DNA of 64,000 bases from a virus (taxonomy: Duplodnaviria > Caudoviricetes), in IMG/VR virus record IMGVR_UViG_3300010998_000002, positions 44,613 through 108,612 of that record; one strand, written 5' to 3'. The notes beneath the pieces were generated by a model. The model was not told the origin of the DNA, did not search any database, and was given only the letters and a program-made list of their open reading frames with translations. Of this stretch, positions 3,519-27,579 are shown in pieces (the stretch's first letter is position 1; every line of letters starts with the position of its first letter). Position numbers and translations under genes: made by a program.

Positions 3519-5034
3519 AAGCGAACTCCAGCAATTCATCAACCGCCCTATGCTCTAATTTATTTTTTGCTCTTGTGCAAGCAACATATAGCAAATTTGC
3601 TTCATCCGGACTTGACATAGACCATCTATCACCATCGGCAATTTTTACCCATGACCATTCTAAACCCTTTGACCTATGCGCTGTAATAAGCGTATATTCT
3701 CTATCAGGATTTTCACAATCTTCTGACTTTCTTAATCTTTCTAAAACATCAATTAAATTATGTGCATTAAGAATAAAGAAATCAAAGAATTTTTTAAAAT
3801 CTAAACTTAAAACATTACTATTTCTAACTAAATAAGGATATAAATCAAAACCTTCTTTTTTTGCTATATTCACATAAGCATCTACATTTTTTGAACGTCT
3901 AATTTTAAATTTAGAACGATATACTTCTAAATCATCTTCACAACCAGATTTACTTGCTAATAATTGGTCGTAAAAATACAACATTTCTGCAAATGCTTCC
4001 TCAAAACAATCTGAATTAGTGCCATTAACAACATCCATAAAATGTACTTTGATATTATCTACTTCCTTCATTAAATTAACAGCATATTCAAACATACAAG
4101 AATTTGTCCTAAATAAGACGGTTTTCTTTGTTGTATCTTCAACATCTATTTTGTTATGAAAATTCTTAATTGAACCAGGCTTAAATTCTTTATATTTTTG
4201 TGCTAATATTTTATTAGCAATTTCGCACACTTCATCATTAAACCTAAATGATATAGTTAATGGAAGCGTGATACCATCAAATTTATCCATAGAATTGATA
4301 GCATGATTCCATTGATAAATCTGCTGATATTTATCTCCAACTATCCAAATTTTTTCTCGTTGAACTCTTTTAATAATGCTTAACATAAAAGGGTTTAAAT
4401 CTTGACTTTCGTCTAAAAACACATATTTATAACCTTTTACGGTATCTGCTGTATTAAGTGCGTATTCTTTAAGATACATATTATGGGTAAATTTCCCATG
4501 ATTAAGAAAATAGGTATATAAATCTTTAAAAAATTTTATTTCATAACTTTTTAAATAATTGCTTTCTAATCCATATTTTTTGCTATCACCAGATAATAAA
4601 GTTTCACAAAATGTATCTAAATCATCAAAAGTTGCGCAATAAGAGTTTAACATATCAAGCACATTTTTATATTTTGCATATTTATAAGATGTGTTTAAAT
4701 TTTTTACTTTCATATAATCTGCATAATCTAAACTCGGCATTACTTCAATATCGCCACCACGCAACAACGAAAAACGTCTTAATGCAAAAGAATGAGTTGT
4801 ATAGCATTCAACATTCAAATCTAAACTATCAAATTTTCGTTTAGAATCTTCAACCATTGATTTATTAAAAACCAAATATAAAATTTTAACTCCTGGTTGT
4901 GTTTTTCTAATTTCTTTAACTATTTCTACTAACGTAGAAGTTTTACCAGAACCGGCAAAAGCATTAATTTTAATCGTATCTTCTTTACCATATATTGTAT
5001 TTACTATGTCCTTTTGCTCTTGGGTTAATTCCAT
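3508..5034 (-). CDS. UvrD/Rep-like SF1 helicase
   Basis: AFAGSGKT, FLDESQD, VGDKYQQIY, SFRF, TAHRSKGLEW, LYVACTRAK. Confidence 0.92.
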   Translation of the reverse strand: MELTQEQKDIVNTIYGKEDTIKINAFAGSGKTSTLVEIVKEIRKTQPGVKILYLVFNKSMVEDSKRKFDSLDLNVECYTTHSFALRRFSLLRGGDIEVMPSLDYADYMKVKNLNTSYKYAKYKNVLDMLNSYCATFDDLDTFCETLLSGDSKKYGLESNYLKSYEIKFFKDLYTYFLNHGKFTHNMYLKEYALNTADTVKGYKYVFLDESQDLNPFMLSIIKRVQREKIWIVGDKYQQIYQWNHAINSMDKFDGITLPLTISFRFNDEVCEIANKILAQKYKEFKPGSIKNFHNKIDVEDTTKKTVLFRTNSCMFEYAVNLMKEVDNIKVHFMDVVNGTNSDCFEEAFAEMLYFYDQLLASKSGCEDDLEVYRSKFKIRRSKNVDAYVNIAKKEGFDLYPYLVRNSNVLSLDFKKFFDFFILNAHNLIDVLERLRKSEDCENPDREYTLITAHRSKGLEWSWVKIADGDRWSMSSPDEANLLYVACTRAKNKLEHRAVDELLEFAYGI

Positions 5035-20653: not shown

Positions 20654-22150
20654 TTATCCTATAATTACTGCCTTATATGTTCCTGCTGTTATGCTTGCAC
20701 TTGCATTCATTTTAACAACGATATTGCTTGCACTACAACTAACTTCACAAATTACTTCATCACCAGATGATACTTCTTTAATCATAACATTAACATCTGC
20801 ATCACCTAGAGTATTTGAGATTGTCCAAGTAGCAACACCACTTGAAGGAGTTAATGCAGGGTTAGTTGCTGTTAATTTGCCTGTTTTGCCTGCTAATGCT
20901 GTAGCAATTGCCTTTTCGGATGCTAAAGCAGAATCGCTTGCGCTTGAAGTTGCACGAACCGATGTTTGTAATACACCAGATTTCAAATTAGAAGTTGTTA
21001 AATTTGAAATTGTATTATTATCAGCATCAATTGTTTTATTTGTTAATGTATCTGTGCTAGATGCTGTAATGAATGAACTTGTATCAACAAATCCTGCAAA
21101 TACATCATATTTATAAGTACCAGATGTATATTCAACGATTACAACATTTGTTCCTGCTGGATATGTGATACCAGCACCTTCAACGAAGTCCGCAGTTGTT
21201 GTAAATTCTGCTGACATATTATACATCCAGCCAACGTGTGCTTTAACCAATGTGCCTAAACTTGCTACATCTGCTACAGATGCTTTAGGTATAATTACAC
21301 TTGCTACAGCATTAGCAATAGCAGTTGCAACAGCACCAGAAGTAATTAATTTGCTTGAACTTTCTGTAACTGTCGTATCAACTTTTGCAGAAATTTGACC
21401 GCTAGTATTACCATATCCTAAATAATTTGCAGAACCACTAGCAATAGATAAATCTGTTAATGCAATTTTTGATGTGATAGAATTAATATCACTTGCAGTA
21501 ACCGTTACACCATCAAGAATGTTTAATTCTGCCGTAGTAATTGTTGCACCATCTAAAATATTAACTTCATCTTTAGATGCTGTAACATCTGTAATTTTTG
21601 CTAAAGTTAAATTTGGTATATCTGATGCTTCAAGCGTTGTTCCTGCTGTAACTTGACCTTCTGCATTGATAGTAAGTTTTGTGTAAGTTCCTGCTGTTGG
21701 TTTTGTAGCAAGTTTATCAACTTTGCCTGCTAATTGCTTTGGATTAACAGCCAATACTTCGGAAGTACCTGTTATTACTTCTGCATCTGTAGCAATTTCA
21801 ATAATACCTTTTGCAGATGTTGATGCTTCTGCTACCTGTGCTTTTAAGCCATTAGCATTTTGAGAAAGTGTAACATTACCAGCATTTGCGCCACTAGCAA
21901 GATTTAATTCAACTTTGCCAGCATCATCGCCTGTTAATTCTTTTACACCATTTTGGAAAGTATATACTTTTCCTTGACTTGTTGCATCTACCCAAGATGT
22001 ACCGTTGTAAATAAGCCATGTTTTGTTTGCCGTATTCCAATAGTGCTGACCTTCAACCGGTGCGGAAGGTGCTAACGCAAGATTGTGTTCAACGGCGTTT
22101 TGAATTTCATTTTGATTTAAGTTTAAATCTGATAATACTTGTTTTGCCAT
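20654..22150 (-). CDS. tail fiber or whisker-like structural protein
   Basis: Ala/Thr/Ser-rich; ASTSAKGIIEIAT, GTYTKLTINAEGQVTAG, TAELNILDG and TLTNKTI fiber repeats. Confidence 0.75.
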   Translation of the reverse strand: MAKQVLSDLNLNQNEIQNAVEHNLALAPSAPVEGQHYWNTANKTWLIYNGTSWVDATSQGKVYTFQNGVKELTGDDAGKVELNLASGANAGNVTLSQNANGLKAQVAEASTSAKGIIEIATDAEVITGTSEVLAVNPKQLAGKVDKLATKPTAGTYTKLTINAEGQVTAGTTLEASDIPNLTLAKITDVTASKDEVNILDGATITTAELNILDGVTVTASDINSITSKIALTDLSIASGSANYLGYGNTSGQISAKVDTTVTESSSKLITSGAVATAIANAVASVIIPKASVADVASLGTLVKAHVGWMYNMSAEFTTTADFVEGAGITYPAGTNVVIVEYTSGTYKYDVFAGFVDTSSFITASSTDTLTNKTIDADNNTISNLTTSNLKSGVLQTSVRATSSASDSALASEKAIATALAGKTGKLTATNPALTPSSGVATWTISNTLGDADVNVMIKEVSSGDEVICEVSCSASNIVVKMNASASITAGTYKAVIIG

Positions 22151-22164
22151 TATAAATTTACTCC

Positions 22165-22578
22165 CTAATTTAAAATTGCTTTACCCTTAAAAGGTGCTTT
22201 CATTGTAATTATGCAAGTATTAGTATCAATATGAGTAATTTCACATACTACTTCTGTACCAGCACTATCTACAACTGTCGCCGTTGGGTATTTGCCTAAA
22301 TTGTGATTAATTATCCATTCAGCAGAAGATTCATTTTGTTCATGAACAAAGTTTTTATCTTTATATTTTTCTATTTGTTCAATGGTTTGTTCTATGACAT
22401 CTTCTATTTGTTCAATTGCAGTTTCTAATTGTTCTGCATATTGTTCGGCTAAATCAGCAGATTCTTTGGCTTTTTCTGCCCAAGATTTTGCTTGATTAGC
22501 ATTTATACTCCCTCTGGTTTGTTGGCAATCAGAGTAAACCCTAATACCAACTTTATCATGATTATACATTCGTTGCAT
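22165..22578 (-). CDS. structural protein (fiber- or collar-associated)
   Basis: Coiled coil plus WIINHNLGKYPTATVVDSAG domain. Confidence 0.6.
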   Translation of the reverse strand: MQRMYNHDKVGIRVYSDCQQTRGSINANQAKSWAEKAKESADLAEQYAEQLETAIEQIEDVIEQTIEQIEKYKDKNFVHEQNESSAEWIINHNLGKYPTATVVDSAGTEVVCEITHIDTNTCIITMKAPFKGKAILN

Positions 22579-23028: not shown

Positions 23029-23661
23029 TTATCCCAAATTTATTTCTCCAATATTTAATGATGTATCAACTGCCAACATTTCTGCTATTGCCTGTCCTTT
23101 AAAATTAGCAATCCAAGTAGATGTATTTAATTGTTTAACAGTTGCTTGTTGTAGTATAGTGGTGTACTTATCTTCAACACCGAAACAATCCGTATCTATC
23201 ATTTTTGTAGCAAAGTTTTTAATTGCTATAAATTGTTCTCTTGTAAAATTCAAGAATGTTGGTTTGCCTTCTAAATCATAACATTTCCAATGATTTATAA
23301 CTTCAATTTCTGGATTACTAACAACGTCTAAATATTTTGTCGTTGTCATTAGAATAGATGTTGCGTTTGTTTCAAAAATATAACTACTATTAAGTGTTAC
23401 ACCACCATAAGCGACTTTTGCTTTTAATTGATATAATTGTTCTTGTAATTCTTTTGCAATTTTAACTGCATTTAATTCTTTTTCTTTATCAGTTCCGGTA
23501 ATATCAACTAATTGACCTTCAATAACATAGGCTTTATCTCTATCAACTATTGCATCATTTTCTTGTTCTGTAACTGTAATATAAGGTTCTGCAACATCAA
23601 GATGTTCTGGGTATGCACCTATTACTTTGCCGGTTTCTGCATTATATCTAACTTTAATCAT
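23029..23661 (-). CDS. putative tail fiber assembly protein (DUF4376-like)
   Basis: YNAETGKVIGAYP N-terminus, YGGVTLN and INHWKCYD motifs; lies downstream of the receptor-binding gene. Confidence 0.5.
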   Translation of the reverse strand: MIKVRYNAETGKVIGAYPEHLDVAEPYITVTEQENDAIVDRDKAYVIEGQLVDITGTDKEKELNAVKIAKELQEQLYQLKAKVAYGGVTLNSSYIFETNATSILMTTTKYLDVVSNPEIEVINHWKCYDLEGKPTFLNFTREQFIAIKNFATKMIDTDCFGVEDKYTTILQQATVKQLNTSTWIANFKGQAIAEMLAVDTSLNIGEINLG

Positions 23662-23987
23662 TATGCTTGTACCTCATTTTGTTGTCTATAATCTTCTAAA
23701 GCCTGTGTAGGATTATCAATAATTTCTTCTGCTTCTTCTACAGTAAATCCTAAACGGAATAATTTTGCATACTCATCTTCTTTTAATTCTAATTGAAGAA
23801 TATCATTATCTGATTCTTGTATCATGTGAGTTTCATCATCAATACCATCTTCTTTTTTTGCTAAAACTGCTACTATTTGCCAAGTATATCTGTCATCTAA
23901 CAAATCTTGTAATGTTGCAATGGCAGACACCATATCCTCATACAAATAGTTGAAAAAATCTGCTTTTGTGTTTAAGTAATATACCAT
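23661..23987 (-). CDS. hypothetical acidic protein next to the DGR
   Basis: LNTKADF...EDEYAKLFRLGFTVEE; GGAG RBS. Confidence 0.6.
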   Translation of the reverse strand: MVYYLNTKADFFNYLYEDMVSAIATLQDLLDDRYTWQIVAVLAKKEDGIDDETHMIQESDNDILQLELKEDEYAKLFRLGFTVEEAEEIIDNPTQALEDYRQQNEVQA

Positions 23988-24000
23988 GTCTAATCTCCAC

Positions 24001-24312
24001 TTATGTTAAAGTATAATAATTATTTTGTTTTATAATAACAGCACAAAAAGGTAATTTGCTTTTATATTTCATTATTTGTCTTTCTAATACTTGTGAAGTA
24101 GTAAAAAATATTTTGTACTGTGGAATATCGTCAATATATTCAGTTATAACTTGTATTTTATTATAAGTTTCACCTTTCTTAACTTTACTAGGTTCTTTTT
24201 TAATTCCTGTAATAAGAACTTCCTTATTTAAAATTTCATCAATTTTAATTTTGTCGCCTTTTAAGAACTCGTCATTTTCAAATTCGCAATACTTTGGGTA
24301 ATCTTGAAACAT
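24001..24312 (-). CDS. small DGR-associated accessory protein candidate (non-Avd, beta-rich)
   Basis: Overlaps the RT 3' end by 52 bp; GDKIKIDEILNKEVLI...FFTTSQVLERQI...LPFCAVIIK...YYTLT. Confidence 0.65.
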   Translation of the reverse strand: MFQDYPKYCEFENDEFLKGDKIKIDEILNKEVLITGIKKEPSKVKKGETYNKIQVITEYIDDIPQYKIFFTTSQVLERQIMKYKSKLPFCAVIIKQNNYYTLT

Positions 24313-25316
24313 CGTTTAACTTCTCTTATCCTATTTTCTAAATTGATATGCTTTCTAAAGTTATGACTATTCGCCCATCGTGTATATCCTTCAACGGAAG
24401 ATAAGTGAGATAGCATTTTTTCGGGATGAATATGACCTTTATCATATTCTTTATATAATTTCTTTAATCGGCGGATTATTCCTCTTGCTGTTCGTTTTCT
24501 TAAAAGAATATATCCTTTAAAATAACGATACCCAAGAAAATCCACTCCTCTTGAAACATGAAACAAATCACATTTACTCATCATTAAATGTAATTTTGTA
24601 TCTAAAAATTCTTCTATTCGTTTTGCAAAATCACGAAGTTGTTTTTTATCATTGCTAAACACTAAAAAATCATCACAATATCTGATATAATCTTTAGCCT
24701 TTAATTCTTGTTTAATAAAATAATCTAATTGTGTTAAATAAATATTGCCAAACCATTGACTTGTTAAATTGCCTATTGGACAATTAGTTTCGCCTTCAAA
24801 TGAATAAATAATATCCTTTATTAACCATAAAACATTTTTATCTTTAATTTTTCTTTCTATTAGATTATATAAAACTTGATGATTTATGCTAGGATAAAAT
24901 TTTTTAATATCCATTTTTAAGCAATATTTATTTCTTTGAGCATAACTATTGGCTCTAACTAATCCTGCATGTAATCCTCTATTTGGTATGCAGGCGTATG
25001 TATCTTTTATAAAAGTTCTATGAAAGATAGGTGCTATTACATTCATTAAAGCATGTTGTAATATTCTATCTGGAAAAAATGGTAATATATAAATTACTCT
25101 CTTTTTAGGTTCATAAATTATTCTTGTATTATAATTTGCTGTTGTAAAATTATGATTTATTAAATCTTGTTGTAATTTTTTTAAATTACCTTCAACATCT
25201 TTTTCAAATCGTTTAACAGATTCTAAATTTCCTCTGCCTTCTCTTGCTTTTGTATAGGCTAAATAAAGATTTTCATAAGAAATTAATCTTTGCCATAAAT
25301 TTCCATATCGTTTCAT
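24261..25316 (-). CDS. DGR reverse transcriptase
   Basis: MKRYGNLW start, EPKKRVI, DRILQHA, LKMDIKKFYPSI, PIGNLTSQ, YIRYCDDF, GVDFLGY; 351 aa with no maturase or endonuclease domain; adjacent TR. Confidence 0.97.
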   Translation of the reverse strand: MKRYGNLWQRLISYENLYLAYTKAREGRGNLESVKRFEKDVEGNLKKLQQDLINHNFTTANYNTRIIYEPKKRVIYILPFFPDRILQHALMNVIAPIFHRTFIKDTYACIPNRGLHAGLVRANSYAQRNKYCLKMDIKKFYPSINHQVLYNLIERKIKDKNVLWLIKDIIYSFEGETNCPIGNLTSQWFGNIYLTQLDYFIKQELKAKDYIRYCDDFLVFSNDKKQLRDFAKRIEEFLDTKLHLMMSKCDLFHVSRGVDFLGYRYFKGYILLRKRTARGIIRRLKKLYKEYDKGHIHPEKMLSHLSSVEGYTRWANSHNFRKHINLENRIREVKRCFKITQSIANLKMTSS

Positions 25317-25365
25317 TTGGTAATGTTTCTTCTAATATTATTATACGAAAAATTACAAAAATAAT

Positions 25366-25414
25366 AAACACCCTCACTTTCGCTAATGAAATCAACTACT
25401 AGCGAAGGTGTTTT
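25366..25414 (-). ncRNA. structured TR-RT spacer hairpin (3' part of the DGR RNA)
   Basis: Minus strand AAAACACC-TTCGCTA-gtagttgatttcat-TAGCGAA-agtgag-GGTGTTT. Confidence 0.6.
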
Positions 25415-25542
25415 AATTGCTTTGTATTTTGCTTATTCAATCTTTCAGAATAAACAGGGTTATGGATTCAGCCTGCATATATTACATACACCCTAGCAAT
25501 TACAGGATGCGAATATAAATAATATTCAAGTAATATTACAAT

Positions 25543-25656
25543 CTCACGCCACGACAACCGTTGTTGGCATTCACGTTAGAACGAGTATTATTCGCATTAC
25601 GAGAACGAGAACCGCAGTTAGTGGAGTTATTCCAATTACCGCCTGCTTTCAGGATA
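25543..25656 (-). repeat. DGR template repeat (TR)
   Basis: 114 bp; reads ILKAGGNWNNSTNCGSRSRNANNTRSNVNANNGCRGV (11 AAY codons, 30 adenines); differs from VR at 18 positions, all TR adenines. Confidence 0.97.
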
Positions 25657-25659
25657 ATA

Positions 25660-25983
25660 ACCCATAACCTTTTCTCACCCATCATGCACTCTTTGAAATC
25701 AAACTTCCACAAAATTATTTTACAACGGTTTTATGGAAGTGAGATTATTCAAAGAGTTTAGACAGGGTATAGCGAGAAGTGGGTAATCTTTTGGGTAATC
25801 TATTCACTATATATTATATGTTTATTAATTATACACTTTCCGATTTGCGGTGTGGCAAGCCACACATACGAGTAGCGCTGTGCGACCTTCGTTTTGTTCG
25901 TAGCAACGAGAAGTCGGAACATCGTGTTAGACGAGGAGATACGCCCCTTTATCGTCTAAAACCCTCGCTACGCTTGGGTTTCC
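25660..25983 (-). ncRNA. structured non-coding region between target and TR (post-VR hairpins and putative 5' domain of the DGR RNA)
   Basis: Inverted repeats ACTCTTTGAA/TTCAAAGAGT (25688, 25748), ACTTCCA/TGGAAGT, GTGTGGC/GCCACAC, TTAGACGA/TCGTCTAA, AAACCC/GGGTTT; no minus-strand ORF in the track. Confidence 0.55.
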
Positions 25984-25986
25984 GTC

Positions 25987-27579
25987 TTATCTGGAAAATT
26001 TCGGCAGGCTCACGCCACGACAACCGACGTCGGCATTCACGTAAGAACGAGTACAAGCCGCAGCACGAGAACGAGAACCGCAGTAAGTGGAGCAACCCCA
26101 ATAACCGCCCGCTATCAGGATATATGGCATACCATAGGATTGACCTCTAGTTCCTTCATCACCATAGCCATTCCAACTGCTACCACCAGCAGGAGCAATT
26201 TCGTCAAGCCATTGCCATATCAAACCACAGCATTCTTCAACGAAATAGCCAGAAATCATACGTTTACCAGCAGTATCTAAATGTCCGCCAGCCGTAAATG
26301 GATTTGGTTGTGCCGAGCCAGCAACGGCAGTTTTTTGGTTGCTACCTTCTGCAAAAATCATAAATTCTACATCTCTTGCAGGGCGTTTTCCAACTAATTG
26401 CAAATCCCATTGATGTTGAATTGGGGTACGAATATTCGTCATGGTAGCACCATAAGCAGAAGCCGTAGAAGTTCCTGTACCGGATTGTAGATAAATATCT
26501 ACCCATAAATCAAGTAAATCAACGTAAACCATGCCGGCAGGATTACACATTGGTCTATGTGTTTCGCACCATACAGAGTTTGGAATAATATCGCCAGCCG
26601 AATAACCAATTGCCGGATGCGAACTCCATAACGAAGGTGCTGATGTAGGTAATGCTGGAGCATTTGAACTTGTAACAGAAACACATAATGTATGGAATCC
26701 ACCAATGCAGTATGCAGTATTACTATTATATCCATACGGATATGTAGCATTAAGTGATACTACAATATCATATTTGTTTAAATTTGCAGTTTCTACCAAA
26801 TAAACATAATAGTCTTTTCCTGCCGTAAAGCCAGACCCCTGGTCTAATTTTGCTGTTGCAGAAAATTCTAAATCTGTCGGATTATAATATGTTCTTTCGT
26901 AACCGTTTAATTTGAATTTAAGATATGTATCACCTTTTAAGATTAAAGATGTATGTGTACTACCAGGTTTTAAAAATTGCTCACGATAACAATTTAATTT
27001 TAATAAATTTTTATGTGCAATTACTATGTCTGTTAAAGGATTTATTAATCTAGGTAGATAAAACTGTTCATTAGTTGTGTCAATTATATAATATTCTGAA
27101 TAACCAATTAAAGCATAAATATTATCAACAATTGGTTTATTTGCTATATCTGTAATTTTAGTGCCATGTGATGTATATTTATAAGAAATTGAATAAGCAC
27201 CAATTGTATCTGTTCTAGTTTCTGTTGTAGAATTATATTCTGCTAATAATTGCGCATATCCTGTGGCATCATTTAATGCGGTTGCGCCAATTGTAAACAT
27301 ATTTGATAATGCAAGTTTATTATTACCGTCAGTATTAAGTAATGCTAATGTTGATAAGTTATTATATGCAGTATCGTAATTGGATTTTAATGTATCTGTT
27401 AAGTTGTTTTTGGAAAATCCTAAACCATCTGTTAATGTACTAATGTTATCAACCGTAAATTGTGATAACTGTGTAACCGTAATCTTTTTATCATCCGATG
27501 AATCAGAAATATCGGTGATTGGCAATATGTCGTTGCTTGCTACGGTTGAAATTTGTGCTTTGTCATTAAATCTAACCAT
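25987..27579 (-). CDS. DGR target: receptor-binding tail protein with a C-terminal CLec/FGE-like (Mtd-like) domain
   Basis: GKDYYVY, IGGFHTLC, IIPNSVW, PAGMVY, WVDIYL, EECCGLIWQWL; VR at the 3' end; follows the baseplate genes. Confidence 0.92.
   Translation of the reverse strand: MVRFNDKAQISTVASNDILPITDISDSSDDKKITVTQLSQFTVDNISTLTDGLGFSKNNLTDTLKSNYDTAYNNLSTLALLNTDGNNKLALSNMFTIGATALNDATGYAQLLAEYNSTTETRTDTIGAYSISYKYTSHGTKITDIANKPIVDNIYALIGYSEYYIIDTTNEQFYLPRLINPLTDIVIAHKNLLKLNCYREQFLKPGSTHTSLILKGDTYLKFKLNGYERTYYNPTDLEFSATAKLDQGSGFTAGKDYYVYLVETANLNKYDIVVSLNATYPYGYNSNTAYCIGGFHTLCVSVTSSNAPALPTSAPSLWSSHPAIGYSAGDIIPNSVWCETHRPMCNPAGMVYVDLLDLWVDIYLQSGTGTSTASAYGATMTNIRTPIQHQWDLQLVGKRPARDVEFMIFAEGSNQKTAVAGSAQPNPFTAGGHLDTAGKRMISGYFVEECCGLIWQWLDEIAPAGGSSWNGYGDEGTRGQSYGMPYILIAGGYWGCSTYCGSRSRAAACTRSYVNADVGCRGVSLPKFSR
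26009..26122 (-). repeat. DGR variable repeat (VR)
   Basis: Encodes ILIAGGYWGCSTYCGSRSRAAACTRSYVNADVGCRGV at the target C-terminus; ungapped 114-bp alignment to TR. Confidence 0.97.

Follow-up and report, generated by a model that had tools for sequence, protein, structure and literature searches.

An Avd-less diversity-generating retroelement with candidate accessory genes in the baseplate and tail-fibre module of an animal-gut phage

Phage receptor-binding proteins are well-known targets of diversity-generating retroelements (DGRs), and the closest described system to the one reported here is that of the Bordetella phages BPP-1 and BMP-1, laid out in the order mtd, avd, template repeat (TR), spacer (Sp) and brt. 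The avd gene is present in 74% of DGRs, and 29% are classed as having no accessory gene; a lineage that does not carry avd has been described, for which an Avd-independent mechanism was inferred and no factor was named, and alternative accessory genes have been listed as well, namely HRDC, MSL, CH1 and four tentative ones, PAG1-4 (Wu et al., PMC5758913). Here we analyzed a DGR in a 64,000-nucleotide (nt) stretch of tailed-phage DNA, positions 44,613 to 108,612 of the IMG/VR record IMGVR_UViG_3300010998_000002 (hereafter the window, whose numbering is used throughout). The record is a complete genome of 108,612 bp with terminal repeats, and 11 studies of animal-gut metagenomes, including goat and bovine ones, contain the phage. 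As such the cassette is ordinary, and it departs from that of BPP-1 in having no Avd.

When set beside the BPP-1/BMP-1 system, the cassette shares with it the order of target gene with variable repeat (VR), TR, spacer and reverse transcriptase (RT), all on one strand (here the minus strand, on which every feature described below lies unless stated otherwise), a target that is homologous to Mtd in both sequence and fold and has its VR at the same C-terminal place, adenine-specific mutagenesis, and a GC-rich 3' end common to TR and VR. Computation points to two further shared traits, a duplex around the TR and a hairpin followed by adenosines, as in the cPRT Stop element. The two systems differ in that the window genome has a non-coding stretch instead of avd and two unrelated small genes behind the RT, in that the 18-nt ends of its TR and VR are identical, whereas the initiation of mutagenic homing sequences IMH and IMH* differ, and in that no convincing GC-rich hairpin directly follows its VR (GC-rich inverted repeats after the IMH occur in only 34% of DGRs; Wu et al., PMC5758913). 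Moreover, the target has an extra N-terminal stretch of ~230 amino acids (aa) and an N-terminal domain different from that of Mtd, and the spacer motif CAAAAYACA, present in the window, is missing from BMP-1. The analogy to BPP-1 drawn in the original prediction, made from the bare DNA, stands for the adenine-specific repeats, the RT and the Mtd fold, and passes over the lack of Avd, the different candidate accessory pair, and the place of avd, which is taken by a long structured non-coding leader.

The cassette and its variation in natural populations

A repeat search of the window returned one 114-nt direct repeat, formed by positions 25543-25656 (TR) and 26009-26122 (VR), which align ungapped at 84% identity. 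On the coding (minus) strand the two copies have 18 mismatches, every one of them at a TR adenine (hypergeometric p 2e-13), such that 18 of the 30 TR adenines are changed in the VR, nine to G, seven to T and two to C. Nearly all of these mismatches (17/18) are located at codon position 1 or 2 of the target open reading frame (ORF), and the TR, when read in the target frame, contains 11 AAY codons. As a result of these changes, 11 of the 37 residues encoded by the VR (target aa 487-523) are unlike those encoded by the TR, and the theoretical diversity of the TR amounts to ~1e18 DNA variants and ~1e16 protein variants. The coordinates, the gapless alignment and the adenine and AAY counts of the original prediction were all reproduced. 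Two ORFs that overlap this region were considered as genes and rejected, a plus-strand ORF of 123 aa at 25779-26150, across the VR and the spacer, and a 58-aa ORF over the TR; neither has a family match, and neither is conserved in L002, the closest relative of the window phage (IMG/VR; RT 78% identical), which shares its whole layout, including the long leader and the 108-aa gene described below.

The final 18 nt of the two repeats (CGGTTGTCGTGGCGTGAG) form a GC-rich block with 0 substitutions, beyond which the sequences diverge. This end had been likened to IMH/IMH*, a comparison that the invariant block followed by divergence would suit; the block contains no IMH/IMH* difference, and its functional boundary is not mappable from sequence. 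In L002, the 18-nt ends of TR and VR are again the same as each other, and differ at 3 positions from those of the window phage, as repeated copying of TR information into the VR would lead one to expect.

The RT gene (24261-25316) is an uninterrupted ORF of 351 aa with an RVT_1 domain and a match to phrog_1423 (E 3e-113), and it has the motifs GNLTSQ at residue 182 and YCDD at residue 213, in line with the earlier description of an intact enzyme. Its nearest solved structure is PDB 8ub7, matched end to end at E 3e-57 (group II intron RTs follow at ~1e-20), and a direct alignment with the bRT ORF from Bordetella phage BMP-1 gave 36% identity over the full length (E 3e-66); the 8ub7 alignment is the same as this direct one. 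Against every NCBIfam model of group II, retron, Abi and DRT reverse transcriptases the protein scored far under the curated cut-offs. We then placed it in a tree of 67 rows (a quick search under LG+G4, with an ingroup picked by similarity to the window RT and an outgroup of four annotated group II RTs and one Cas1-linked RT). In this tree, a branch with SH-aLRT support of 100 has all DGR-type RTs on one side, among them the window RT, bRT, and those of VHML, FP_Lagaffe and hankyphage, apart from the group II and Cas1-linked enzymes. The window RT therefore belongs to the DGR clade of prokaryotic RTs, as a phylogeny suggested in the original prediction was meant to establish.

The target gene (25987-27579) encodes 530 aa, of which the C-terminal ~300 are Mtd-like and comprise the Mtd second domain and a variable domain with a C-type lectin (CLec) fold. 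The protein matches the Pfam family mtd_2nd (PF21916, the Mtd second domain; E 6e-17) and phrog_11262, annotated as 'tail protein', and in a phmmer search of the PDB its residues 238-523 aligned to Mtd 91-374 (1yu3, E 1e-8), with the VR lying over Mtd's own VR. An AlphaFold2 (AF2) model of residues 231-530 (pLDDT 85, pTM 0.85) found the five Mtd structures 1yu0-1yu4 as its best Foldseek matches (E ~3e-18, TM-score 0.71-0.74, ~305 columns), followed by other DGR variable proteins (TaqVP, TvpA) and CLec folds of the formylglycine-generating enzyme (FGE) type. As modeled, then, the target C-terminus has an Mtd-type CLec fold, the outcome that had been anticipated for a structure prediction, and together with the adenine-specific TR/VR pattern and the DGR-clade RT it upholds the view of the locus as one with the mutagenic retrohoming signature of BPP-1, acting on a CLec-fold protein. 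The N-terminal ~230 aa gave no family match. The VR stands at the 3' end of the gene, encoding aa 487-523 of the 530. Genes of the Baseplate_J and DUF2612 families are located directly upstream of the target, and a fibre-like gene of 498 aa (20654-22150) further downstream. A receptor-binding role of the target would be reasonable, and its homology to Mtd and its place in the baseplate and fibre module suggest that the phage may switch tropism. Between the DGR module and the fibre-like gene there is an ORF of 137 aa (22165-22578, minus strand) with weak PHROG matches, an HNH endonuclease family among them.

We then compared contigs of three independent metagenome runs with the window over 25000-26800. 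Population variation here means differences between the consensus contigs of the samples, and the counts are of the listed places only, these being the best-supported rows of a table that has 79 more. Positions 25000-26008, which hold the 5' end of the RT gene, the spacer, the TR, the leader and the post-VR stretch, have at least 6 variable places per 1,009 nt, none of them listed in the TR. The VR has at least 19 per 114 nt, and 18 of the 19 listed are at the 30 TR-adenine positions (p 4e-12). Upstream of the VR, the target has at least 14 differences per 678 nt, which is above the RT-TR side. The flanks of the cassette are ~99.4% identical among the compared strains, indicating that the VR changes are recent, and the VR differing at TR-adenine positions while the TR stays unchanged across populations indicates that the cassette was recently active in nature. 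We are thus highly confident that this DGR is real and recently active. The original prediction, which had called the cassette probably active and had proposed looking for VR variation confined to TR-adenine positions, is strengthened by this comparison, made between natural populations on contigs.

Two observations were made on the samples themselves. The X3 and X6 contigs break inside the VR and the TR. The sample of run X3 also contains a second, related phage (~83% identity over 25000-25621) that shares the 3' part of the TR, and in which the 321 nt between RT start and TR are replaced by 268 others, giving it a different spacer RNA.

Absence of Avd and the small genes behind the reverse transcriptase

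The Avd families PF05635 and PF22296 gave no match at E <= 1 anywhere in the complete 108.6-kb genome, and a bAvd model used as positive control recovered the Bordetella Avd at E 7e-36. In the window, the interval of ~330-350 nt between VR and TR is non-coding, with a GC-rich segment and a structured leader at the position of avd. A VR-TR spacer of ~350 nt was found only in the window phage and L002 among the compared relatives. Of 80 viral loci selected by their RT, 62 have an adenine-biased TR/VR pair upstream of the RT, and in most of these, unlike in the window, VR and TR are separated by just 50-120 nt, too short an interval for a gene. The same short interval is seen in vir525 (BK063673, host Methanosarcinales), which shares with the window a phrog_11262 Mtd-like tail protein, a TR, a phrog_1423 RT and an overlapping gene of ~95-103 aa.

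The gene that overlaps the RT in the window (24001-24312) encodes a mildly basic protein of 103 aa (pI 8.4), and its start overlaps the 3' end of the RT gene by 52 nt. The RT-selected viral set has homologues of this protein in 54 of its 80 loci; others are carried by the archaeal virus vir525 and by 25 loci of bacteria or archaea, and none of all these showed an Avd-like gene alongside. In seven loci (L029, L031, L032, L036, L040, L096 and L103) the homologue occupies the avd slot, between VR and TR, and in three cases (P0020, P0103 and P0061) an RVT_1 protein carries it as a C-terminal fusion; in addition, the ESM Atlas holds a 55-member cluster of 431-aa RT proteins, the tail of which matches the 103-aa fold at a TM-score of 0.72. 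As to the avd slot itself, five other loci (L042, L045, L046, L048 and L071; IMG/VR) have very small targets of 118-161 aa, in which the VR ends ~76-80 nt before the stop, and carry an unannotated ORF of 119-158 aa in the slot in addition to a 103-aa homologue after the RT; the avd-slot ORFs of these five and of L069 had no Pfam match.

The association was also approached from the opposite side, starting from the 103-aa protein alone. Of 27 prokaryotic loci picked in this way (using sub-alignment A3 of the family, a sample biased towards one subfamily), 25 are found within ~1 kb of a same-strand DGR-type RT, and of the remaining two one is a contig edge and one a partial match, such that all 25 testable loci are RT-adjacent. 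These loci span about ten phyla and an archaeon, and 18 of them have an adenine-biased TR/VR pair. Both L103, from the cultured methanogen Methanogenium cariaci JCM 10550, and L110, which is the virus vir525, carry the module of RT and 103-aa gene with an adenine-biased TR/VR pair, and its presence in a methanogen genome and a methanogen virus indicates that the module crosses the boundary between bacteria and archaea.

A profile search yielded 1,230 representatives of the 103-aa family at 50% clustering; the named ones are all annotated as 'hypothetical protein', with no Pfam domain. The AF2 model of the window protein (pLDDT 90) is a beta-barrel with one helix (strands 31-41, 49-60, 63-71, 89-96 and 99-102; helix 74-82), and its best structural neighbors are the oligonucleotide/oligosaccharide-binding (OB) domains of single-stranded DNA-binding proteins (SSB), PriB, RPA and the editosome, at Z 5-6. 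In one neighboring ESM Atlas cluster, 44% of the members have Phi29_Phage_SSB. Foldseek gave no match below E 0.1 for this protein, and no significant sequence match was found either. We also considered the protein as a cryptic Avd, and rejected this, as none of 34 members had a Pfam match, the hhalign probability was 0.1% and the predicted fold is rich in beta strands; the family mean pI, moreover, is 8.5, vs. 9.5 for Avd. Taken together, we find it likely that the 103-aa protein, with its OB-fold-like model, is a required accessory of the DGR.

A second small gene (23661-23987) begins 13 nt after the 103-aa gene and encodes an acidic protein of 108 aa (pI 4.05) with no match in Pfam or the PDB. 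Its family was found in 35 loci, 9 of them bacterial and from several phyla, and wherever one was seen it stood 9-18 nt behind the 103-aa homologue, the single exception being a 4-nt overlap. That this protein too is a DGR accessory is a possibility to which we give slightly less than an even chance.

The avd-less DGRs described by Wu et al. in 2018 (Architecture A; Lineage 3) share with the window the lack of avd and a small ORF that overlaps the RT end. Their Lineage 3 has an acidic CH1 protein of 160-169 aa in Bacteroides elements such as hankyphage, and the window module likewise has an acidic small protein. The RT of hankyphage p00 is found in the same large subclade as the window RT, and positions 3802-4287 of this phage (L117, Bacteroides phage p00) encode an acidic protein of 161 aa (pI 4.7) that overlaps the RT stop and fits the description of CH1. 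That the 108-aa or the 103-aa protein could be CH1 was rejected, since the hankyphage protein is unrelated to either family (hhalign probability ~0.1%). Among the papers searched, none connects DGRs with an OB-fold protein or describes the 103-aa family, a result that does not take in PAG1-4 of Wu et al.

Structured RNA of the cassette

The minus strand from the leader to the RT start (window:25317-25790(-)) has a minimum free energy (MFE) fold with z = -8.7 vs. shuffled sequences, and no parts of the cassette are better conserved between the window phage and L002 than the leader and the TR-RT spacer. In the MFE fold the leader forms a long stem-loop upstream of the TR (25673-25782), highly conserved in L002. 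Next to it lies the 5' strand of a putative TR-bracketing duplex (GGUUAUGGGUU, 25659-25669), whose 11 nt end 3 nt upstream of the TR and can pair with 12 nt of the TR-RT spacer, the 3' strand (GAAUCCAUAACC, 25458-25469), resembling the duplex of the cPRT Stop element. All 11 pairs are kept in L002, with one double change of G-C to A-U. In a swap control with 44 non-redundant loci, pairing with the own spacer reached -22.7 vs. -18.4 kcal/mol with swapped ones (p 1e-6).

Within the spacer, a hairpin followed by CAAAAUACA (25423-25455) fits the element 'stem-loop followed by adenosines', a layout described for DGR RNA in a survey that took in only DGRs having Avd (bioRxiv 10.1101/2023.10.23.563531). 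A second hairpin of the MFE structure, just upstream of the RT start (25368-25411), is nearly identical in L002. In 27 of 46 non-redundant loci the TR-RT spacer has a single copy of the motif CAAAAYACA, whose density is 4.5 per kb in spacers vs. 0.16 per kb elsewhere in the loci, an enrichment of ~27-fold. From the conservation of the TR-bracketing duplex, the hairpin and the adenosine run we infer, by analogy to BPP-1, that the window DGR RNA may work as it does there, in priming and termination, with a different protein partner.

A second possible pairing, which departs from the MFE structure, joins leader positions 25722-25746 (AAUCUCAC...ACCGUUGU) to 25540-25564, covering the TR 3' end with its flank (ACAACGGU...GUGAGAUU), through two helices of 8 bp each. 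Since L002 conserves either arm, no covariation is seen; this pairing may compete with that of primer and template.

After the target stop there is a non-coding stretch of ~150 nt (25838-25986) with ~50% GC in a genome of ~28% GC. It has local hairpins, for example GTGTGG-CTTG-CCACAC, at 27-150 nt beyond the VR, and its sequence is not conserved in L002, where a hairpin is found at the same relative place. A 'cluster of GC-rich hairpins' after the VR was rejected as a feature, its DNA fold being no more stable than that of shuffled sequences (z = -0.96). Rfam gave nothing credible, either at gathering thresholds on the whole window or at permissive thresholds on 25250-26150, and neither tRNA nor tmRNA was found. 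A scan for sigma-70 promoters and terminators gave counts near the shuffle expectation, with no terminator after the target.

Proposed explanation, alternatives and meaning

We consider it quite probable that the locus is a complete, recently active DGR, carried by a 108.6-kb animal-gut phage among its baseplate and tail-fibre genes. According to this explanation, a structured RNA of ~460 nt, comprising leader, TR and spacer, would be transcribed from the minus strand, and the RT would copy its TR into cDNA, misincorporating opposite the 30 template adenines. The Mtd-like target gene would then have the VR at its 3' end replaced by this cDNA, which could recode as many as 16 codons for the ligand-binding face of the CLec domain. 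The OB-fold-like protein, whose translation would be coupled to that of the RT, would take over the helper role of Avd, perhaps jointly with the acidic 108-aa protein. The observations that weigh against parts of this explanation are given below, together with the alternatives.

It may be asked whether the DGR is instead a recently inactivated relic, in which the TR/VR pattern would, like the VR differences seen from one population to another, record past activity only. Contigs cannot show ongoing polymorphism, and the VR differences come from consensus contigs, between samples and not within one population; the single raw-read run that was compared contained no reads of this phage. Nevertheless, the three populations have an intact and almost unchanged RT, TR, pair of small ORFs and set of RNA elements but different VRs, and the flanking identity of ~99.4% makes the VR changes recent; a relic is accordingly very unlikely in our view. 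Phage receptor-binding tips are commonly hypervariable, and the VR differences could in principle stem from ordinary positive selection or recombination on such a tip, with no part for retrohoming, a reading to which the elevated differences in the target upstream of the VR (at least 14 per 678 nt, more than on the RT-TR side) would lend themselves; one of the 19 listed VR differences falls outside the TR-adenine positions. This reading is hard to reconcile, however, with 18 of the 19 listed places falling among 30 of 114 positions (p 4e-12), or with all 18 TR/VR mismatches within the genome being at adenines, and we regard this origin of the differences as extremely improbable.

As for the helper, a genuine DGR might need no dedicated accessory or use a host factor, in which case the 103- and 108-aa genes would be neighbors with another job, for instance in single-stranded DNA binding or regulation. 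The 29% of DGRs classed by Wu et al. (PMC5758913) as having no accessory gene lend this some plausibility, as do the 12 of 58 subclade RTs with no visible 103-aa gene in the available DNA; most 'none seen' loci, on the other hand, are cut by contig ends. The link of the two proteins to the RT, like their candidate roles, is drawn from gene context and predicted structure, the OB-fold assignment itself having modest scores (Z 5-6). The clade with the 103-aa gene and no Avd, which has a support of 92, is a biased sample whose loci were chosen by RT similarity, some of the RT fusions could be assembly frameshifts across a natural gene overlap, and the support for the duplex is moderate, the own upstream segment having ranked first in only 3 of the 44 swaps. 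Against mere neighborhood stand the RT adjacency in 25 of 25 testable loci across about ten phyla and an archaeon, the movement of the 103-aa gene between the avd slot and the position after the RT, always inside the cassette, and its fusion to the RT in several clusters, and we hold a DGR with no dedicated helper, or with one from the host, to be unlikely.

To summarize, the absence of Avd, the conserved module of RT, 103-aa and 108-aa genes and the evidence of natural activity make this DGR a variant worth a bench test. For the quarter or so of DGRs that have no Avd, the locus gives a concrete and testable candidate pair, which sits in a cassette with signs of natural activity and with RNA elements resembling those that are essential in BPP-1. 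The DGR-based tools for directed evolution that are now built around bRT-Avd could also profit from a compact RT that has a small OB-fold helper. We tentatively propose, giving it a little under an even chance, that the 103-aa and 108-aa proteins form a two-subunit replacement of Avd that loads the RT on a BPP-1-like self-priming RNA, constituting a widespread and mechanistically distinct class of DGR. If this were true, the class would span phages, bacteria and archaeal viruses, and the window phage would represent it in a naturally active form.

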